DNA of 64,000 nt from Candidatus Kaiserbacteria bacterium (GCA_016699245.1 CP064968.1:835042-899041), one strand, 5' to 3'. Shown: positions 9,946-36,787, counted from the stretch's first letter. The notes: generated by a model from the sequence alone, not told the origin. Program-made: numbers and translations.

Positions 9946-10016
9946 GCGGGTATCGTTCAGTGGCAGGATGATTGCTTCCCAAGCAATAAACGGGAGTTCG
10001 ATTCTCCCTACCCGCA
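9946..10016 (+). tRNA. tRNA-Gly (anticodon CCC)
   Basis: Acceptor GCGGGTA/TACCCGC, anticodon stem ATTGC/GCAAT, loop TTCCCAA, T-arm GGGAG-TTCGATT-CTCCC, discriminator A. Confidence 0.8.
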
Positions 10017-10066
10017 CTTATTCTTCAAAGCAAGCATCAGACGCGTGAGAAAGTGCAGTGCACTTT

Positions 10067-30052: not shown

Positions 30053-30481
30053 ATGAAGTTTAATTTTAAAACACAACTGAAACAGCGAATTCGCTCGTTT
30101 GAAGAGGAGAAAGATTCTCACGAATATATGCATCCACAGAGGGATTGGATGTTAATTTTAGGAAGCGCTGTGTTTGTATTTTTAGGAGGTGTAACGTACA
30201 GCGCTTTTGATTTTTATACGCAGTTTGTGATGCCTCCTGAGCCGTCACTTGTTGAAGATAAAGTGGTTCGGTATCGTGATACCGCGATTCTTGAAGTTGC
30301 GAAATTATACGATGATAGAGAACAACTGTTTACAACACTCAGAGCCGATAAGCCACCCGTCTCCGTGCCCATTGAGGTGCCTGCCACCACTACTGCCGAA
30401 ATAAAGATTGAAGAGGCCCCACCACTTGCAGAGGAGGGTACTCCTCTGTACACTGAAACCGCTCCGACCCTGTCCCCATAG
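30053..30481 (+). CDS. Hypothetical membrane-anchored protein, possibly a PilP-like pilus component
   Basis: Transmembrane helix plus Pro/Thr-rich C-terminus; 1-nt gap from the previous gene. Confidence 0.35.
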   Translation: MKFNFKTQLKQRIRSFEEEKDSHEYMHPQRDWMLILGSAVFVFLGGVTYSAFDFYTQFVMPPEPSLVEDKVVRYRDTAILEVAKLYDDREQLFTTLRADKPPVSVPIEVPATTTAEIKIEEAPPLAEEGTPLYTETAPTLSP

Positions 30482-30483
30482 TT

Positions 30484-30526
30484 CAATGGATAGAACTGCG
30501 GACTTCTAAGCCGTTATTCGAGGCTA
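30484..30526 (+). pseudogene. Partial duplicate of tRNA-Arg(TCT): D-arm through 5' T-stem, no acceptor stem
   Basis: 'tagttcaatggatagaactgcggacttctaagccgttattcgagg' matches tRNA-Arg(TCT) at 30664-30707 (2 mismatches in the D-loop). The upstream sequence cannot pair as an acceptor stem. Confidence 0.7.
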
Positions 30527-30620
30527 AACAGTCTGGGAGACTGTTTAGGAGGTTGTCGACAGTTTCGACCAAAGGAAGAAACTGTCATACAACCTGAACA
30601 GTTCATGTAATGAAAGATTC
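30527..30620 (+). repeat. Nested-hairpin repeat family, copy in + orientation (AGGTTGT-C-GACAGTTTC...GAAACTGTC-AT-ACAACCT)
   Basis: Two concentric perfect inverted repeats read from the sequence. Related copies at 4930-4995 and 31713-31835 on the opposite strand. Confidence 0.7.
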
Positions 30621-30655
30621 CGTAAAGGAATAGAACATAGTACGATACAATATTG

Positions 30656-30728
30656 CCTCGGTAGTTAAATGGATATAACTGCGGACTTCTAAGCCGTTAT
30701 TCGAGGTTCGATTCCTCGCCGAGGCACA
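30656..30728 (+). tRNA. tRNA-Arg (anticodon TCT)
   Basis: Acceptor GCCTCGG/CCGAGGC, anticodon loop CTTCTAA (stem has one 31:39 mismatch), T-arm CGAGG-TTCGATT-CCTCG, discriminator A. Confidence 0.7.
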
Positions 30729-30770
30729 AAAACAGAGCGACGTCTTTGCATTTGATACAATAATATAACT

Positions 30771-31388
30771 ATGAACATGTCGATATTTTGGACAATACTC
30801 GGGGTCTTACTTCTGTGCATTCTTGCATATTTTCTCTTGCGAGATGATACACGTATTATTAATTATCCCCCGAAGGGGGGTCCCATTGTTGCATTTGGCG
30901 ATAGCCTGGTTCGTGGGGTTGGCTCTCCGGAGACAGAAGGCTTTGTGCTCACACTCGCATCAAAAATTGGTGAGCCAATTATTAACAAAGGAGTTCCCGG
31001 AGATACTACTACTGATGGTTTAGCACGCATTGATACTGTTCTTGAAAGTAACCCACGCATTGTATTAGTACTCCTCGGAGGGAATGATCGTCTGCGACAG
31101 ATACCCACCGAACAAACGCTCGCAAACTTACGAATGATTATCTCCAAGATACAAGAGAGTGGTGCAGTCGTTGTGCTCCTCGGTGTACGAGGGAATCTTT
31201 TGACTGGACGATTTGATGAAGAACTTGAGAAACTTGCTCACGAAATGGGGGCGGTATTTGTGTCCAACGTGCTTGATGGTATCTTCGGCAATCAACAGTT
31301 AATGTTTGATTCTGTGCACCCAAATAAGGATGGGTATGCGCTTATCTCTGAGAAGGTGTATGAGGTGATTGGAACTGTGTTACGGTAG
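30771..31388 (+). CDS. SGNH/GDSL-family hydrolase
   Basis: GDS(L) block IVAFGDSLVRG, LLGGNDRL, DSVHPNKDGYALI (catalytic D-x-x-H). Confidence 0.8.
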   Translation: MNMSIFWTILGVLLLCILAYFLLRDDTRIINYPPKGGPIVAFGDSLVRGVGSPETEGFVLTLASKIGEPIINKGVPGDTTTDGLARIDTVLESNPRIVLVLLGGNDRLRQIPTEQTLANLRMIISKIQESGAVVVLLGVRGNLLTGRFDEELEKLAHEMGAVFVSNVLDGIFGNQQLMFDSVHPNKDGYALISEKVYEVIGTVLR

Positions 31389-31712
31389 GGTTGGATTGTA
31401 AATATGGTTTCGTGGTCACAAGTTGCTAATTGATTTTTTTCGCTTCGGAACTTACACACAAATAGAATTTCTTGGTCTCCTTTTTCATTATGAAAGAAAA
31501 AGGAGACAGACTCAGAAAATATAGTCGCTACCGCTCGTTATTTTCTGGTCACCCCGCCTCGGCCATTTTTATTTCTACGAAGGAAATAAAAATATGCCTG
31601 CGACTCGCACAAAGGCACGAAAGCAAAGCAGTTTGCTTTCTAAATCAAATACCCACCCATTTTAAAATGGGTGGGTATTTGATTTACCTTTGTGCGCGAT
31701 AAGAGACTTGAA

Positions 31713-31835
31713 TCTTACAGATTCTGTTCAGGTTGCACCACAAGAGTATTTCATTTTTCTAATTCGTAAACTCATAAGAAAAATTGGTCATATGACACTT
31801 TCTTCCGTTGGTCGAAATTGTCGACAACCTTTTTA
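31713..31835 (-). repeat. Nested-hairpin repeat family copy (with a 55-nt internal insertion) at the left end of the integrative element
   Basis: Reverse complement reads aggttgtcgacaatttcgaccaacggaagaaagtgtcata...caacctgaacagaatctgtaag. About 90% identical to 30541-30605 outside the insertion. Confidence 0.7.
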
Positions 31836-32078
31836 AGTCTCTGGCTTAAAAACTAAATACCCCCAGAAAAAATCTGGGGGTATTTAGTTTTGTGCACCAA
31901 GTATCACCCCAATTGAACTTTTTGATTGTATTGTTGATGAGTATGATTTATTTGTTGCCTGGAACGTTGAAATGCGTAATTTCTTCGCCATTGAAAGAAT
32001 CGAGGAAGAGACATCGGTAACGTATTGAGCTTGTCTGATATGAATAAAATGGTCTTTTGATACATTAGGGTAATTCTA

Positions 32079-32300
32079 TTGAACTTTGGTACTATTATCA
32101 TAATGAAACCCGACAAGAAAAAAGACGCACTGACTGACGTTGTAGATATTGCAACTTCACCTGCAAGCAATAATTCGGACTCGAATTTGAGCGAAGGGCA
32201 AACAGTTGCTTCGTCAGGCGAGGTTATTACTTTAGGTTTTGAAAATCAGATTGATAAGTTGGCCCGTGATTTAGTAAGTAAAGCAAGAAAGAAGAAGTAA
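32079..32300 (+). CDS. Small hypothetical protein (element cargo)
   Basis: 73-aa ORF followed by a hairpin caccctt...aagggtg. No similarity recognised. Confidence 0.3.
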   Translation: MNFGTIIIMKPDKKKDALTDVVDIATSPASNNSDSNLSEGQTVASSGEVITLGFENQIDKLARDLVSKARKKK

Positions 32301-32368
32301 TTTTATATAAAAAAGCCACCCTTCCGCCGAAACGAAAGGGTGTACTTTCAGTTTCGTCGTGGGTGGCG

Positions 32369-32947
32369 TCAGCGTACGGGTGGATAGACCAGGACTCGGT
32401 CTTGCAATGAGACAGACCCAGCTGAAAGAACGAATCCCATCACGCCACGTTTGTTCTGTGCTTCACGAATGAATCTGGTCTTGAGCCCTTCAATGCCGTG
32501 ATGGGCTTCGAGCCGTTCACCCACAGTTCGACATGGACCATTTTCTTCCCAGACTGCCAGAATGGCTTGCGTGACGTTGCCGTCTGCCATATGTGCAGGG
32601 AAGACAAGTCGTGTGCCAGGTTCCAGCTTGGAAAAGTTGGGGATGCCCGAAATCGTGATGTTTTCGAGTAGGCAACCGAGAGGAATGTCGTGGCCAAGAG
32701 CTTGCTCAACCTCAGTCATTTCCTCCAAGGACAAGCCAGTCCAGCTTCGCCAATTGAACACCTGGGACCCTTTCATCAATCCCGAAGTTCTGATGTAGTC
32801 GCCGTCATGTCCGCTCAAACGGCGGTCGAAACCAGCGTGGTTGTCGCCGATTGGGCCGTCAAGTTCAAACTTGATATTCAGAACTCGTTCACCGTTGATT
32901 GCCAACGAGCTTACGAGTCCAGTAGCGATTGGATTGATATTTGGCAC
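32369..32947 (-). CDS. MOSC-domain protein (YiiM/YcbX-like)
   Basis: ENITISGIPNFSKLEPGTRLVF...GPCRTV matches the MOSC beta-barrel core including the conserved Cys. Confidence 0.65.
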   Translation of the reverse strand: MPNINPIATGLVSSLAINGERVLNIKFELDGPIGDNHAGFDRRLSGHDGDYIRTSGLMKGSQVFNWRSWTGLSLEEMTEVEQALGHDIPLGCLLENITISGIPNFSKLEPGTRLVFPAHMADGNVTQAILAVWEENGPCRTVGERLEAHHGIEGLKTRFIREAQNKRGVMGFVLSAGSVSLQDRVLVYPPVR

Positions 32948-32957
32948 GGGACACCTC

Positions 32958-33587
32958 CTATTGGCGTGCTGTCAGAAGAGCATTGTCTGCTACTTCTGCC
33001 ATGGTTTCGTAGAAAGGAAATTGCTTTCCTGTGGCTTCACTCAACTCGAACAGAATGACATCGAGTCCATGGAAACGACGGTCACCGCCGACCACAATGC
33101 GTGCGTCCATCATTTCGGCGTAAGCAGTGAATTTGCCAATCTCACGCCGAGTATCCATGGCATACGGTTCAGGCCCTGGATGTGGGTGTGTGGAGCTTTC
33201 AAGGCCGAGCCAGAAGATGACACAGCCAGGCACGTTCGCCTCAAGACCAGCTTGTTTGAGGTAGTGGCGTTCCCACACCAGTTGTCGATTATCTGCCTTC
33301 GAGAACGGCTGGTGGAAGTGTTTTGCCAACCGATGCTCGTCATTCCACCGCGATGGGCAAGCAATGAGAGCGGAAGGTTCACGACTGATGATGTGTTCGA
33401 CCATACTTGACTGCCAATCGTCACCACCGCGAATCGGTCCTGCCAAGAAAAGCAGGGGTGATTCATTCGTTGGTGAAAGTGGCACGATTTGTTTCGGTAC
33501 GTAAATGGTCATCGGTTCTTCTCCTATCAATGAGCTGTGAATGGGGGAACTTATAGGACTTTCAAGGTCCTGAAGCTGGTCGCACAA
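32958..33587 (-). CDS. Nucleoside 2-deoxyribosyltransferase-fold protein, DNPH1/Rcl-like (2'-deoxynucleoside 5'-phosphate N-hydrolase-like)
   Basis: PLLFLAGPIRGGDDW resembles the DNPH1 'YFCGSIRGG' nucleotide-binding loop. Acidic residues lie downstream. 11-nt gap to the MOSC gene on the same strand. Confidence 0.5.
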   Translation of the reverse strand: MCDQLQDLESPISSPIHSSLIGEEPMTIYVPKQIVPLSPTNESPLLFLAGPIRGGDDWQSSMVEHIISREPSALIACPSRWNDEHRLAKHFHQPFSKADNRQLVWERHYLKQAGLEANVPGCVIFWLGLESSTHPHPGPEPYAMDTRREIGKFTAYAEMMDARIVVGGDRRFHGLDVILFELSEATGKQFPFYETMAEVADNALLTARQ

Positions 33588-33614
33588 TATAATGAAAATG
33601 GCAGTTTGTAAAGT

Positions 33615-34907
33615 GTGGGACTCCTGTATAATACAGCTAATATGGCAAAAAACATTACAGGCGAATATGTTTCAAAAAATCTTTCAGCTAAAGAGGTTTA
33701 CGGCTATAAAGACGAACACAATGAGGTTTCAGTTGAAATTGTAAAAGAGGTATACAAAAAGAAACATCTCATCGTTCACTACCCGTACAATAAAACAAAT
33801 GGCAGTCCTGCTTATAAGTTTGTGCGTGGGATACATTACATCGGATTCTCTCCAGACGATATAAATGGTGTAAAAAAAGCAAAAAATAGAGGATATGGAT
33901 TTACCAAAGATACAAGCGCACTCATTTATTTTCTTGAACAGGATTATCCAACCATCAATCAAATCTGGATTACTAAAGATGGAGAATCCGAATATCAAAA
34001 ACAGAAAGGGATTCTGATACTCAATAAAGATGATTTTTACAATTTGTATCTTTCTATAAAACCAGAAAATGACCGACATTCCAAAGAGCGAAACAATCTC
34101 GCAAAAGATTTCTTGGCCAGCACGCTTCCAAAATTGTTTGATAAAAGTAAATATGAATATGTAAAAGGGGAACTCCATTCACTTCTCCAAAAAATAAAAA
34201 CTCACAATGGAAAATTGTCTGATTCTGACCTGAAGTCATTATCTTCGGCTATTGAAGAAGGGCTGTTTGACGTCAGTCAACGGGTGCTGATAGATACTAA
34301 AAAAGGCATCGATAAGATTTATATTGAAACAGTTTTGGAAGAATTTGATAAATTGTCTGGGCAGACAGGCGAAACAAAAACATTAGAGAAAAAATGGCAG
34401 GACTTTTTCAAGAAACATAGCTGGATATTCAGTTTTGTTTTTGCGCATCCAGTCGTATTTCTCCAAAAGGAGATGTATGTGGGTGGTATGAAAATGAGTG
34501 GCAAAGGTGCTACTTATGCAGATTTTGTATATAAGAACAAGCTTACAAAAAACACTGCCGTTGTAGAAATAAAAACACATGCATCCATACTTATGAGCGC
34601 ATCTCCTTACAGGAAAGGTGCTGACATCTATTCAATTCAAAGTGGTTTGTCAGGAGCAATTGTACAGGTTTCGGACCAAAAGGATAAGATATTGAAAAAT
34701 TACAGCCACCTTGGAGTTTCAGAACCCTTCAACCCCAAATGTATAGTTATTGCAGGTTCAACGACTGAATTCAAAGGTAAGGGAGCAAAACGTAAGATAG
34801 CAAGCTTTGAGCTTTTTCGAAGTTCGTTGAGTGGTGTTGAGATTGTGACTTTCGATGAAATAAAAGAAAAGATACTGCTTCTAAAAACACAGATTGAATT
34901 GAATTAG
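33615..34907 (+). CDS. Shedu-like (DUF4263) PD-(D/E)xK nuclease-domain protein; candidate anti-phage defence gene
   Basis: C-terminal region has the DUF4263 hallmarks: EKKWQDFFKKHSWIFSFVF, then D...E-x-K (ATYADFVY...TAVVEIKTH) and IVIAGSTTEF...VEIVTFDEI. About 430 aa, as for SduA. Confidence 0.6.
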   Translation: MGLLYNTANMAKNITGEYVSKNLSAKEVYGYKDEHNEVSVEIVKEVYKKKHLIVHYPYNKTNGSPAYKFVRGIHYIGFSPDDINGVKKAKNRGYGFTKDTSALIYFLEQDYPTINQIWITKDGESEYQKQKGILILNKDDFYNLYLSIKPENDRHSKERNNLAKDFLASTLPKLFDKSKYEYVKGELHSLLQKIKTHNGKLSDSDLKSLSSAIEEGLFDVSQRVLIDTKKGIDKIYIETVLEEFDKLSGQTGETKTLEKKWQDFFKKHSWIFSFVFAHPVVFLQKEMYVGGMKMSGKGATYADFVYKNKLTKNTAVVEIKTHASILMSASPYRKGADIYSIQSGLSGAIVQVSDQKDKILKNYSHLGVSEPFNPKCIVIAGSTTEFKGKGAKRKIASFELFRSSLSGVEIVTFDEIKEKILLLKTQIELN

Positions 34908-34911
34908 CTTA

Positions 34912-35079
34912 CTTGCTAACAAGTGATAACAAGGGTTCCTCGCTGGTATCAGCCGAGAACAGCCAAGAGTTTGCCTGAAAACAGGCAATAACAGGTGCTC
35001 GTTTCTTTTGTTGCTAACAACAAATAGCAACAAAACCCTTTTAGCTGAAATTCCTCACTATTAGTACTACAATGGGGTA
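34912..35079. promoter_or_regulatory. Iteron-like TAACAA-containing repeats upstream of the serine recombinase gene
   Basis: ttgctaacaagtgataacaagg, gcaataacagg, ttgctaacaacaaatagcaacaaaac: repeated and partly palindromic 'ttgctaacaa' units read from the sequence. Confidence 0.4.
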
Positions 35080-36714
35080 ATGCAAGAAATCAAGACAACG
35101 GCAGACCTGAAGAATGTCTTCAGTAGTAAGTTCAATAACGATAAGTCAGAAAATCAGGAAGAGTTTTACCGTTACGCAATTTACGTCCGCAAATCGACTG
35201 ATACTGAAGATAAGCAAGAGCGGTCCCTTGGTGACCAATTAGCTGATTGTGAAGAGTTGGTCCTTCGCCACTCACTTCGTGTCGTAAAAGTGATACAGGA
35301 GTCGATGTCAGCCAAGGAGCCAGATATTCGACCAAAGTATCGTGAGATGATGAACGACCTTCAGGCGGGTAAGTATGATGGCATCATTGCGTGGCACCCA
35401 AACCGACTGTCACGAAATATGCGTGAAGCGGGTGAAATTATCGACCTGCTCGATAAGAACATCATCAAGGACCTCAAATTTGTTTCTTACACGCACACAA
35501 ACGATGCCAGCGGTAAAATGTTGCTTGGTATTACTTTTGTAATGTCGAAGCAATTTTCGGACAATTTGAGCGACAGCGTTACGCGGGGTAACCGAAGAAG
35601 TATTGAAGAGGGAAAGTACATCAACAAAGCCAAGCATGGATATAAAAAAGACCGTAATGGCTATTTACGGCCAGATGGCAAAAATTTTACTTTAGTTACC
35701 GAAGCGTTCCAGTTGCGGTTGCAGGGTAAAACAATTGATGAGATTGCGACTTTCCTCAATAAAAATGGATACTCACGCCAAAACTCTATATCAGGGAAGA
35801 GTTACACGGCCCACATGCAAAAAGCTATGGCAGGGAAGTTTATGAGGGACCCTGTTTATACAGGTGTGATGGTGTATGGAGAGACAGTGGTGGACCTGAC
35901 AGAAGTATATGATTTTGTGCCAGCTGTCAGTGTTGAAGATTTCATGAAAATAAATCGTCTGGAAAAGAATTCAGACATAATAAAGTTAGCAAAATCATTC
36001 AAGCGAACTGGTGGGGTGAAAGCAGACCTGCTTCGAGGAAAGGTTTTGTGTGCAGGATGTGGCGAACAGCGCATGGCTGGTATTACTACCAAAGAATTGA
36101 AGAGTGAAGCGAAGAACTATTTTTATTACCGTTGTGATACTGAAGGGTGTCCGTTTGAGAATAAATCTACCCGTGCCAAAGTGATACTTGATTTTGTTAT
36201 GGATTACTTCAAGAAGAGGCCGTTCTCAAACGTAGATGCGTACCAGCACTATAAAGTGGAAATGGTTCGCGTGATGAATCAACGCCTCAAAGAGAAGCAG
36301 GACCTTCTTCGTGTGAAGAAATCAGAATTGGCAAAACTACAAAGTCGTATAGTCGACCTGAAGTCCGCGATGGTTTTAGAAAAGGATGAAGAGGTAAAAG
36401 GTTACCAAAAAGAAGATTTTCAGAAGACGACTGACAGGGTAGTGGTTGTAAATGCTGAATTTGAAAAGTTAGAGAAGCAAATCGAAGCAGTGAAGGGCAC
36501 CCCGATGACTTATCAGGAATTCCTTGAACTTTTTGATAATATGGCTTCAATACTGAAGAAAACTACTAAAATGAGTGATTTGGACACCTTACTGCAAAAG
36601 TTCTTCTTGAACTTTACTATAAACAAAAAATCCGTTGAGGAATATACCCTCAACGAACCTTTTGCTTCACTTGAATCTATTGAAACATCAAATGTTTCTC
36701 TTGGTGCGCGATAA
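35080..36714 (+). CDS. Large serine recombinase (resolvase/invertase N-terminal catalytic domain plus recombinase and zinc-ribbon domains)
   Basis: YAIYVRKSTDTEDKQERSLGDQ (catalytic Ser), ...DGIIAWHPNRLSRN..., a central recombinase domain, Cys cluster CAGCG...CDTEGC, and a C-terminal coiled coil. 544 aa. Confidence 0.85.
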   Translation: MQEIKTTADLKNVFSSKFNNDKSENQEEFYRYAIYVRKSTDTEDKQERSLGDQLADCEELVLRHSLRVVKVIQESMSAKEPDIRPKYREMMNDLQAGKYDGIIAWHPNRLSRNMREAGEIIDLLDKNIIKDLKFVSYTHTNDASGKMLLGITFVMSKQFSDNLSDSVTRGNRRSIEEGKYINKAKHGYKKDRNGYLRPDGKNFTLVTEAFQLRLQGKTIDEIATFLNKNGYSRQNSISGKSYTAHMQKAMAGKFMRDPVYTGVMVYGETVVDLTEVYDFVPAVSVEDFMKINRLEKNSDIIKLAKSFKRTGGVKADLLRGKVLCAGCGEQRMAGITTKELKSEAKNYFYYRCDTEGCPFENKSTRAKVILDFVMDYFKKRPFSNVDAYQHYKVEMVRVMNQRLKEKQDLLRVKKSELAKLQSRIVDLKSAMVLEKDEEVKGYQKEDFQKTTDRVVVVNAEFEKLEKQIEAVKGTPMTYQEFLELFDNMASILKKTTKMSDLDTLLQKFFLNFTINKKSVEEYTLNEPFASLESIETSNVSLGAR

Positions 36715-36787
36715 GAGACTTGAACTCCTGACCTTCTCGGTGTAAACGAGCTGCTCTACCAACTGAGCTAATCGCGCATGTGTTTAT
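36712..36787 (-). tRNA. tRNA-Val (anticodon TAC), encoded CCA
   Basis: Acceptor GCGCGAT/ATCGCGC, anticodon loop TTTACAC, T-loop TTCAAGT, discriminator A, CCA present. Its 3' end is the right-hand att repeat. Confidence 0.8.

Follow-up and report, generated by a model that had tools for sequence, protein, structure and literature searches.

In serine integrases, the att sites share a very short common core and the recombinase gene lies at one end of the element. CIMEs, which are gene-less, att-flanked remnants of ICEs, are associated with site-specific accretion. The mycobacteriophages BPs and Brujita, as Broussard et al. reportedly described in 2013, carry attP inside a coding sequence, and integration alters the C-terminus of the protein and with it stability or activity. 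SSV1 targets a tRNA gene. The "suicidal" integrases of archaeal viruses and plasmids, of the SSV1, pTN3 and pT26-2 type, have the att site inside their own gene, which integration partitions, and belong to a compact, all-in-one module; a 2021 review states that no recombinases of this self-disrupting kind are known outside Archaea (PMC8371274). A survey of large serine recombinases (LSRs) makes no mention of tRNA (PMC10083194). The tycheposons of Prochlorococcus, small elements with defence-rich cargo at tRNA genes, have an LSR in place of the tyrosine recombinase in 27 of 937 cases (bioRxiv 10.1101/2020.12.28.424599).

We analysed a 64,000-nucleotide stretch of Candidatus Kaiserbacteria DNA (the window). 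An earlier note on this DNA had proposed a compact, LSR-driven integrative element with a Shedu gene at the 3' end of a tRNA-Val, bounded by a 21-bp direct repeat. Our analysis supports such an element and relocates its ends: positions 31892-36707 (4.8 kb) are, with high probability, an integrative element inserted by its own LSR at the extreme 3' end of tRNA-Val(TAC). The features of the locus, in window positions, are as follows.

31692-31712, minus strand: left repeat copy, a 21-nt duplicate of the tRNA-Val 3' end (positions 74-54), outside the region shared with L001
31713-31848, no strand: gene-less module (TCTTACAG...) with homologous copies elsewhere
31849-31891, no strand: terminator-like hairpin with 19-nt arms followed by TTTT; host-side B arm of attL
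31892-31895, plus strand: attL core GTGC, the only sequence common to attR at the real junction; L001 homology begins here
31896-32028, plus strand: orphan 3' exon of the recombinase (P' arm), 43 codons PSITPIELFDCIVDEYDLFVAWNVEMRNFFAIERIEEETSVTY and TGA
32103-32300, plus strand: small ORF, 65 aa, KKDALTD...GEVITLG, 95% nucleotide identity in L001
32317-32342, no strand: G+C-rich, terminator-like hairpin between the convergent small ORF and MOSC gene
32369-32947, minus strand: MOSC-domain protein, 192 aa, cargo, by domain match
32958-33587, minus strand: cargo protein, 209-aa ORF, probably about 184 aa from its ATG, 97% nucleotide identity with L001
33615-34907, plus strand: Shedu SduA, 430 aa, cargo, Pfam PF14082 at 2e-24 (C-terminal DUF4263 nuclease domain)
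35080-36714, plus strand: LSR in its integrated, truncated form, 544 aa, ending ...SLGAR*
36702-36777, minus strand: tRNA-Val(TAC), the intact target gene (ARAGORN; Rfam 66.5 bits)
36704-36707, plus strand: attR core GTGC (tRNA positions 74-71), with the crossover within or beside it

HMM typing of the recombinase, a check suggested in the earlier note, identified Resolvase (PF00239, 1e-22), Recombinase (PF07508, 3e-07) and Zn_ribbon_recom (PF13408, 1e-05) domains, all above gathering scores, and the ORF matched PHROG 95 "integrase" at 1e-59; its closest solved relatives were weak matches (E about 1e-6). The same Resolvase/Recombinase/Zn ribbon architecture and catalytic R-x-S are found in the phage and ICE serine integrases phiC31, Bxb1, TP901-1, SprA and CcrAB. 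Both the ORF and the catalytic motif, Y35-x-R37-K38-S39, are intact in the window, and Y35, R37, S39, R109 and R112 are invariant across 16 diverse family members. As had been claimed, the gene terminates inside the tRNA: its TAA stop lies at 36712-36714, the last codons are read from tRNA-Val antisense, and the integrated ORF ends after two such codons. The window has only two exact copies of the repeat, GTGCGCGATAAGAGACTTGAA, one at 31692-31712 and one at 36704-36724 (0 expected in shuffles), and the match lengthened to 30 nt at 90% once mismatches were allowed. Its right copy corresponds to nucleotides 74-54 of tRNA-Val, at the 3' end, and the two perfect copies and the intact tRNA-Val(TAC) are thus as originally described. 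The last nucleotides of the tRNA 3' end (...GC-A-CCA) now come from the right end of the element and the tRNA stays intact. Domain searches of all ORFs between the repeats found no tyrosine recombinase domain, and the locus is not a tRNA island of the tyrosine type.

Comparison with related loci placed the ends of the element. The LSR of L001 is 99% identical to that of the window while the host flanks are only 76-83% identical, and the DNA common to the two loci, 95-98% identical, runs from exactly GTGCACCAAG (31892) into the tRNA. The true left junction, GTGC at 31892-31895, is accordingly 200 bp inward of the 21-bp repeat. The motif GTGCACCAAGTATCACCC is common to the window, L001 and L002 (84% LSR identity), and in L002 it is preceded by a hairpin and T-run. 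On the right, attL and attR mismatch at 36703, and although the LSR genes of the window and L001 are 98% identical, their tRNAs show host-type polymorphisms from 36713 onwards; together these differences bracket the crossover to 36704-36712. The window has an att core of 4 bp; over 32 loci the core ranges from 4 to 10 bp. A short core of 4 bp in attP and attB is in keeping with usual LSR behaviour, and the phage and ICE serine integrases likewise combine a very short core with a recombinase gene at one element end. The proposals that the 21-bp repeat forms the ends of the element, and that the LSR uses a long core as tyrosine integrases do, did not hold: the element shared with L001 and L002 begins 200 bp inside the left repeat, and the common core is 4 bp with attL at 31892-31895.

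The hairpins reported in the left arm are real. One, at 31641-31686, has 23-nt perfect arms; the other, with 19-nt arms (31849-31891), abuts the attL core. All 9 of the related elements have a hairpin and T-run abutting the core, and a matching hairpin and T-run directly abut the tRNA 3' end at the LSR-free sites L090, L091 and L088. The hairpin at 31849-31891 corresponds to the tRNA 3' flank from before insertion of the LSR element. The idea that the two AAATACCC...GGGTATTT palindromes are sites for the recombinase or accessory factors found no support; they resemble terminator-type hairpins of tRNA 3' flanks, and the second would simply be the host-side (B) arm beside the true attL.

When the two element ends were joined at the core, the LSR ORF gained 43 conserved codons, growing from 544 to 586 aa. 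Because the joined ends lengthen the LSR frame in this way, attP lies inside the recombinase gene, with the excised form encoding 586 aa and the integrated form 544 aa; integration leaves the final 43 codons at the left end, 4.8 kb from the rest of the gene. Hand checks of 9 loci found the join in frame in all 9 (LSR identity 41-100%; tRNA-Val, Leu, Pro or Gly), adding 30-45 aa with the motif (L/I)ELF(D/E)...WN...(V/I)T(Y/L/F)*. An automatic version of the test was in frame at 26 of 32 loci; five of the six out-of-frame cases were wrong core picks for which an in-frame core was shown by hand, and the sixth, L037, has the automatic pick only. An exon HMM matched the window once (E = 7e-20) and matched 45 related Patescibacteria loci (E<1e-3) with one copy each, always on the LSR strand and with 2.6-9.3 kb between exon start and LSR stop; it had no matches elsewhere in the searched loci. 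The exon dN/dS was 0.19-0.30 for the closest pairs, indicating purifying selection. Uninterrupted forms exist as well: P0106, with an uninterrupted LSR ORF, lies on a probably circular 4929-bp contig that has a 30-bp end overlap and no tRNA, P0122 carries a further uninterrupted full-length ORF, and P0024 has a related junction form.

This arrangement, in which the last ~43 residues of an integrase are swapped on insertion, is one for which the 2021 review has archaeal tyrosine cases only. As in the SSV-type "suicidal" integrases, the recombination site lies inside the element's own recombinase gene. However, SSV-type enzymes are tyrosine recombinases (PF16795, Phage_integr_3) of archaeal hosts, whereas the family described here has serine domains only and resides in Patescibacteria; and where SSV-type integration yields N- and C-terminal halves that are presumed inactive, the LSR in the window is shortened by only ~43 of 586 residues, at its C-terminus, and retains every recognised domain. 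Integration-dependent immunity in BPs and Brujita likewise involves an attP in a coding sequence, although there a repressor is split and the integrase is of the tyrosine type, while here the serine recombinase itself is split. Phage and ICE serine integrases differ in that the attP of our element lies inside the recombinase ORF, with the C-terminus set by integration state. Characterised LSRs mostly target protein-coding genes, whereas this one targets the last few nucleotides of a tRNA. The tycheposons, whose comparison here is one of element type and not of recombinase kinship, belong to a different phylum, and the passages cited above leave a split recombinase gene unmentioned (bioRxiv 10.1101/2020.12.28.424599).

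We then asked how widely these features extend. The LSR stop lies within 60 nt of a convergent (antisense) tRNA 3' end in 58 of 83 distinct family loci, and in 56 of those 58 the gene overlaps the tRNA by 11-58 nt. These 58 loci cover nine amino-acid specificities and fourteen tRNA genes, and the hosts are Patescibacteria. The LSR ORF is the truncated, integrated form in 45 of the 83 loci examined; the true boundaries of those 45 elements can be found with the orphan-exon profile, which is of practical use for annotation. The clade is large, uncharacterised and aimed at the last nucleotides of tRNA genes, and the loci compared show that the gene split is conserved across it, together with the targeting of tRNA 3' ends and a small KDxLTD...TLG gene. 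In the window this small gene is the 65-aa ORF, which comes next after the full-length recombinase ORF when the element is a circle; in 32 of 44 loci the KKDALTD...GEVITLG motif occurs no more than about 100 nt past the orphan exon. The product had no family match in Pfam, PADLOC or PHROGs, and its position and conservation lead us to guess that it may be an accessory factor, such as a cofactor or RDF.

The cargo varies. The product of 33615-34907, earlier called Shedu-like, is predicted to be a Shedu anti-phage defence nuclease, the Pfam match (2e-24) being joined by a PADLOC match to SduA at 2e-61 over residues 85-425. From the suggested DNPH1-like/MOSC pair only the MOSC domain was recovered; the 32958-33587(-) product had no match in Pfam, NCBIfam, PADLOC, PHROGs or PDB sequences, and its FLAGPIRGG-type motif was recognised by eye only. 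In L001, two unrelated small genes take the place of the MOSC gene and an unrelated 303-aa gene that of Shedu, and relatives at the same target site have likewise swapped cargo. Family members differ in cargo, and defence genes are frequent in it (Shedu, CBASS-like, retron/DRT, Druantia parts), and these very small genomes swap defence genes on 3-9-kb cassettes. The near-identical element backbone of the window and L001 sits in divergent hosts. The earlier note had suggested looking for empty sites and a circular attP. LSR-free tRNA-Val sites were found in L091 (tRNA 76/76 identical) and L090 (same or near-identical allele), as was a circular-looking relative, L092, whose LSR is only 47% identical to that of the window; no attP/attB junction or isogenic empty site was recovered for the window's element or species.

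We considered whether the element instead runs from 31692 to 36724, with the repeat as an attL/attR core made by an LSR acting like a tyrosine integrase. The perfect repeat does bracket the recombinase and its cargo, eight of 33 family loci have tRNA 3' fragments of 18-22 nt left of the LSR, and the homology of L002 to the LSR-free L088 stops where the 21-bp fragment ends. However, L001 has the same element (95-98%) without the fragment, its homology starting 200 bp further in, and the fragment is absent from 25 of the 33 loci. Because the right copy past 36712 has host-type polymorphisms, that part is host tRNA and not element DNA; the conserved in-frame exon sets a different junction, with a 4-10-bp core; and a homologous fragment and module occur at a tRNA-Gly in the same window without an LSR. 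This reading is largely refuted, and we give it very little credence. The repeat is unrelated to the recombinase crossover, one half of what the earlier note had named as refuting its proposal; the element itself is nonetheless real. We favour instead a reading in which the 21-nt fragment and about 180 bp are a separate gene-less module, independent of the LSR, whose earlier insertion duplicated the tRNA 3' end and left the repeat; the left copy adjoins the LSR element and is no part of it. The module holds an inverted T-loop fragment, TTTAAGTCTCT (31832-31842), and has homologues at 30550-30610 (inverted, 89-92%), at 10162-10234 at the tRNA-Gly (78%), in L089 (tandem) and in L002 (two copies). 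It appears to predate the LSR element and resembles a CIME remnant or miniature insertion. Like a CIME, it lies beside a complete element at the same target, but no recombinase acting on it was identified. Against our reading, the L002/L088 break, taken alone, would fit a composite insertion of module and element too.

Such a composite, in which 31692-31891 and the LSR element move as one unit through accretion (as in ICE-CIME pairs) or with the 21-bp repeats as substrates of a different recombinase, would explain why the module directly abuts the element in both the window and L002, why its 3' part is 84% identical between them, matching the conservation of the element itself, and why the repeats in the window are perfect. 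We judge it improbable, as the domain search of all ORFs between the repeats found no tyrosine recombinase or other candidate gene, L001 lacks the module, and modules are found by themselves (at tRNA-Gly, in L091 and in L088) and as tandem copies (L089). That the element is a fixed, immobile relic, its "exon" a decayed piece of an old recombinase or a conserved noncoding DNA-binding site, seems to us the most improbable reading of all. It would account for the lack of junction reads for the window's element, for an exon whose earliest in-frame start codon is the ATG within the "EMR" codons, close to where it stops, and for the resemblance of the exon's ELFD motif to the LSR-internal FLELFDN motif. 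By contrast, each element has one exon, which always continues the LSR reading frame through the tRNA core; the dN/dS is below 1 over 43 codons, too long a stretch to be put down to a binding site of roughly 25 bp; independent contigs, one of which looks circular, carry the ORF unbroken; a near-identical element is present in a divergent host; and the LSR ORF and catalytic motif are intact.

For the mobile element that we favour, full-length enzyme made from the circle would perform attP x attB integration, presumably by the usual serine mechanism, with Ser39, 2-bp staggered cuts and subunit rotation. The C-terminal swap could then alter enzyme activity, stability or directionality and provide a built-in record of integration state. 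More tentatively, and with our doubts outweighing our confidence, we propose two isoforms, a full-length form from the circle and a form without the ~43-residue tail from the integrated element, whose exchange would act as a directionality or commitment switch with or instead of a classical RDF, a bacterial serine counterpart of the archaeal "suicidal" integrases operating across Patescibacteria at the CCA end of many tRNAs. If true, the self-splitting arrangement extends to bacteria and to the serine recombinase superfamily, and a C-terminus tied to integration state offers a testable idea for directionality encoded without or beside an RDF. Targets at tRNA ends are short, conserved and predictable, and are of interest for integrase tools and Patescibacteria genetics. 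The reconstructed attP reads CATCAAATGTTTCTCTTGGTGCACCAAGTATCACCCCAATTGAAC. A family-wide scan of att half-sites for dyad symmetry gave a signal no better than noise; in the closest clade only, the predicted attP contains a 14-bp perfect palindrome, CTTGGT-GC-ACCAAG.

The earlier note placed a compact element at 31692-36787, bounded by a 21-bp perfect direct repeat that it read as the tRNA duplication made by a large serine recombinase (LSR). The observation stood and the element is real; its left boundary and the meaning given to the repeat were misread. The 21-mer GTGCGCGATAAGAGACTTGAA occurs in exactly two copies in the window (31692-31712 and 36704-36724), where shuffled sequences are expected to hold none, and the recombinase gene does end inside an intact tRNA-Val(TAC).

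Genes of the element and its target
32103-32300: conserved small ORF, the first gene after the recombinase in the circular topology
32369-32947, minus strand: MOSC-domain ORF
33615-34907: Shedu SduA ORF
35080-36714: recombinase ORF with Resolvase, Recombinase and Zn_ribbon_recom domains, ending at a TAA stop within the tRNA
36702-36777, minus strand: intact tRNA-Val(TAC); the right copy of the 21-mer is its 3' end

Shedu SduA and the MOSC domain were recovered as cargo, and the label "DNPH1-like" for a 209-aa ORF (32958-33587, minus strand) found no support in any family library searched. The MOSC and 209-aa genes (32250-33500) have a G+C content of ~52%, compared to 36-44% in the remaining element and flanks, consistent with foreign cargo. 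The 170-bp spacer 5' of the recombinase start carries a direct repeat (TTGCTAACAAGTGATAACAA at 34913-34932 and TTGCTAACAACAAATAGCAA at 35011-35030, 98 nt apart), possibly a pair of operator sites; the right copy lies within a segment common to the related locus L001 and the left copy outside it. A promoter scan of the element returned fewer sites than were present in shuffles.

The true ends of the element emerged from relatives at the same site. The L001 recombinase is 99% identical to that of the window while its flanking genes are just 76-83% identical at the nucleotide level, and the common element segments are 95-98% identical with the MOSC and Shedu genes swapped for unrelated ones. This comparison provides evidence for recent horizontal transfer with modular exchange of cargo. 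L001 lacks a second copy of the tRNA fragment, and its homology to the window starts at 31888-31892, at GTGCACCAAGTATCACCCC, right behind a hairpin plus T-run, indicating that the boundary does not lie at the 21-bp repeat; in locus L002, the GTGCACCAAGTATCACCCC motif is likewise preceded by a hairpin plus T-run. On the right, position 36703 already distinguishes attL from attR, and host-type differences between the window and L001 tRNAs, including a compensatory T-stem pair, begin at 36713, up to which the recombinase genes are 98% identical. Crossover therefore occurred within 36704-36712. As judged from these alignments, the core shared by attL and attR is GTGC, from which we reconstructed a predicted attP (CATCAAATGTTTCTCTTGGTGCACCAAGTATCACCCCAATTGAACTTTTTG) and attB (AAATCTGGGGGTATTTAGTTTTGTGCGCGATAAGAGACTTGAACTCCTGACC). 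The joined element ends read CTTGGT-GC-ACCAAG. This perfect 14-bp palindrome occurs in the closest clade alone: a search for perfectly palindromic attL sites in 51 loci returned just the three closest relatives and chance-level matches, and the palindrome is therefore no family-wide rule. When attP and attB sites reconstructed for eight loci were scanned for dyad symmetry, the signal was no better than noise. In the integrated tRNA, the terminal GCACCA is supplied by the element. The reconstructed pre-integration site (31866-31895 joined to 36708 onward) encodes only ...GCAC followed by AAAA, and integration therefore also adds an encoded CCA. The element end replaces the tRNA terminator with recombinase-gene antisense, and convergent transcription may result.

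Continuing the recombinase ORF across the core into the DNA right of 31895 added 43 further open codons (PSITPIELFDCIVDEYDLFVAWNVEMRNFFAIERIEEETSVTY*), giving a protein of 586 aa compared to 544 in the integrated form. An in-frame extension of 30-45 aa with the motif (L/I)ELF(D/E)...WN...(V/I)T(Y/L/F)* was present in 9/9 loci checked by hand, whose recombinases are 41-100% identical and which use four different tRNA targets. A first, motif-based search for this exon was dropped because shifted-frame controls matched equally often, and an HMM of the extension was searched instead against the six frames of all loci (cut-off E<1e-3). It yielded one match per locus in 45 loci, all on the recombinase strand, and none elsewhere; the sole match in the window is at 31897-32025 (E = 7e-20). 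From exon start to LSR stop, the distance in these 45 loci is 2.6-9.3 kb (median ~5 kb). An automatic test in 32 loci, which took the longest core shared beside the exon, found 26 in frame. Of the six that were not, five were traced to a longer, unrelated match chosen by the script, with the correct in-frame core seen by hand; the sixth, L037, is outside the hand-checked set. Cores are 4-10 bp and lie at tRNA positions 71-76. The exon evolves under purifying selection: its dN/dS ratios, whose median is 0.47, fall to 0.19-0.30 in the closest pairs. The window exon has no in-frame start codon until an ATG near its end, and expression on its own is therefore unlikely. An initial reading of the ELFD-like stretch at 31912 as a relic of an older recombinase copy was rejected in view of the in-frame joins and contiguous natural ORFs.

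Such uninterrupted ORFs were sought among the 120 best database homologues of the recombinase. P0106 (577 aa) contains the extension within one ORF, on a 4929-bp Logan contig that carries an AAA_15/AAA_21 ATPase as cargo, has no tRNA gene and ends in a 30-bp terminal overlap, which would be the k-1 overlap expected for a circular sequence. P0122 is a second uninterrupted ORF, on another contig, and P0024, on L093, is a related junction form, uninterrupted and with a different left-end motif, GTGCACCATGTGGGACGACGTTAGAAC. From these assembled contigs, the excised form appears to exist in nature. Copies of the GTGCACCATGTGGGACGACGTTAGAAC type (reading ..CAPCGTTLELL) were also observed at 2722-2777 and 3516-3563 of L002 and at 821-865 of L088 (reverse complement), as well as in L093; they mark what is left of a further element from this family at that tRNA-Val.

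A protein of a Candidatus Kaiserbacteria genome is identical to the recombinase, whose relatives number in the hundreds, nearly all from Patescibacteria. In alignment, their C-termini (..GAR, ..GDG, ..RTRTPNPL..) are the antisense translation of tRNA 3' ends. In 58 of 83 distinct loci, the recombinase stop is at most 60 nt from the 3' end of a tRNA gene, which is always convergent, indicating that tRNA targeting is a property of the whole family; in 56 of the 83, the two genes overlap by 11-58 nt. In all, 14 tRNA genes are targeted, with specificities for Val, Leu, Pro, Met, Asp, Gly, Gln, Glu and Arg. Many database entries of the family (P0019, P0034, P0057, P0084, P0090 and others) read far into tRNA antisense (..GTRTPNPL.., ..YRTRTCDL..), which makes the C-termini annotated for them artefacts of integration. 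Directly 3' of the exon, a small ORF with (K/R)KD(N/A)LTD...G(E/D)(I/V)(I/V)TLG is present in 32/44 loci; the window copy (32103-32300) had no family match in the libraries searched. Six loci (L002-L007) with an 84% identical recombinase occupy the same tRNA-Val/acylphosphatase site and carry SMODS plus S_4TM, an S24 peptidase and other cargo. Among 137 cargo ORFs from the 45 elements, defence-type cargo included Shedu, two SMODS cyclases plus S_4TM, two retron/DRT-type reverse transcriptases, DruA, SNase, caspase and RelA_SpoT; permeases, an ABC ATPase, an rRNA adenine methylase and a cyclodipeptide synthase were also found. Cargo is therefore diverse and often, not exclusively, defensive.

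The recombinase is a bona fide LSR with a short core. With the junctions, the split ORF and its conservation across the family, and the restored tRNA established, the following mechanism can be proposed. Catalysis would be of the serine type, at Ser39 (motif in the alignment). The change of isoform would matter: full-length enzyme made from the circle would carry out integration, and the truncated enzyme from the integrated copy would be inactive, stabilised, or competent for excision with a cofactor. Selection continues to act on the exon, which is silent in the integrated state, and this argues for frequent passage through the circular state. Unlike known LSRs, these enzymes have attP inside their own gene; a 2021 review (PMC8371274) describes recombinases that disrupt themselves as known from Archaea alone. 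Their target class, tRNA ends, also differs from that of the LSRs in a survey that does not mention tRNA at all (PMC10083194), and provirus statistics tie RNA targets and long cores to tyrosine integrases (PMC13626063). Tycheposons of Prochlorococcus carry an LSR in a small minority of cases (bioRxiv 10.1101/2020.12.28.424599). The literature searched contained no account of serine recombinases of this self-splitting, tRNA-targeting kind, or of any LSR in Patescibacteria. What underlies the original claim, a serine integrase family that is specific for tRNA ends and whose genes span attP, is of greater interest than that claim.

LSR-free sites were found, none of them isogenic to the window's host. 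In L091, a tRNA-Val identical to that of the window at 76/76 positions is abutted at its 3' end by a hairpin plus T-run, with no recombinase within the 2.7 kb of sequence present; L090 is arranged similarly, and in L088 sequence matching the L002 left flank runs directly into the tRNA. Exact-sequence look-ups with the flanking acylphosphatase and SGNH hydrolase gave no match and no isogenic empty site. The exact 21-mer was present in only four loci among metagenome contigs, none an isogenic empty site or attP junction of the window's element, and a degenerate 21-mer was absent from viral contigs.

A tRNA fragment of at least 12 nt lies within 450 nt of the exon in only 8/33 family loci, at a distance of 143-224 nt, about one module length. 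In the window, 31692-31891 has three parts: the tRNA-Val fragment, a module that starts with TCTTACAG and includes a T-loop fragment in inverted orientation, and a hairpin plus T-run. A homologous unit (78%), comprising a tRNA-Gly 3' fragment, TCTTACAG module and hairpin, lies downstream of tRNA-Gly (9946-10017) at ~10018-10234, in mirror orientation and with no recombinase nearby. Such units are present without a recombinase in L091 and L088, and tandem module copies occur in L089, from a relative of the window's host. These findings argue against the 21-bp repeat as a footprint of the recombinase, and the sequences indicate that the genome holds a family of gene-less ~150-250 bp units that duplicate tRNA 3' ends. 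The simplest reading of the repeat is two successive insertions: a gene-less module would have inserted, duplicating the tRNA 3' end, to be followed by the LSR element at the regenerated end of the tRNA, where the module hairpin became its B arm. By analogy, the modules resemble CIME-like remnants of tyrosine-integrase elements. The 18-22-nt tRNA 3' fragments were also considered as retroelement primer-binding sites, a reading rejected because no RT gene lies nearby and the fragments end at tRNA positions 54-57, not 58/59.

Further tRNA-derived sequences surround these sites. A 24-bp perfect repeat (30500-30523 and 30683-30706) is part of a truncated tRNA-Arg(TCT) copy, positions 1-52 (window 30470-30727), whose acceptor stem differs (GTCCCCA vs GCCTCGG). 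Next come a hairpin, a partial inverted module (30550-30610) and the intact tRNA-Arg. L001 and L002 have tRNA-Arg on the other strand, which suggests that ~30550-31830 may have been inverted or rearranged in the window's genome. Sense-oriented copies of tRNA 3' ends, from T-loop to discriminator, were seen at 2690-2745 of L091, 1437-1490 of L088 (reverse complement) and 5560-5600 of L016; split by a ~24-nt hairpin and located just past the terminator of the real, opposite tRNA, they form with it large inverted repeats around the terminator. Finally, displaced left tRNA fragments in five loci from different hosts and tRNAs (L016, L039, L061, L091 and L088) end in the T-loop and continue with the same GTCAC (GACTYG|GTCAC), which hints at the sequence-specific end of another mobile unit.
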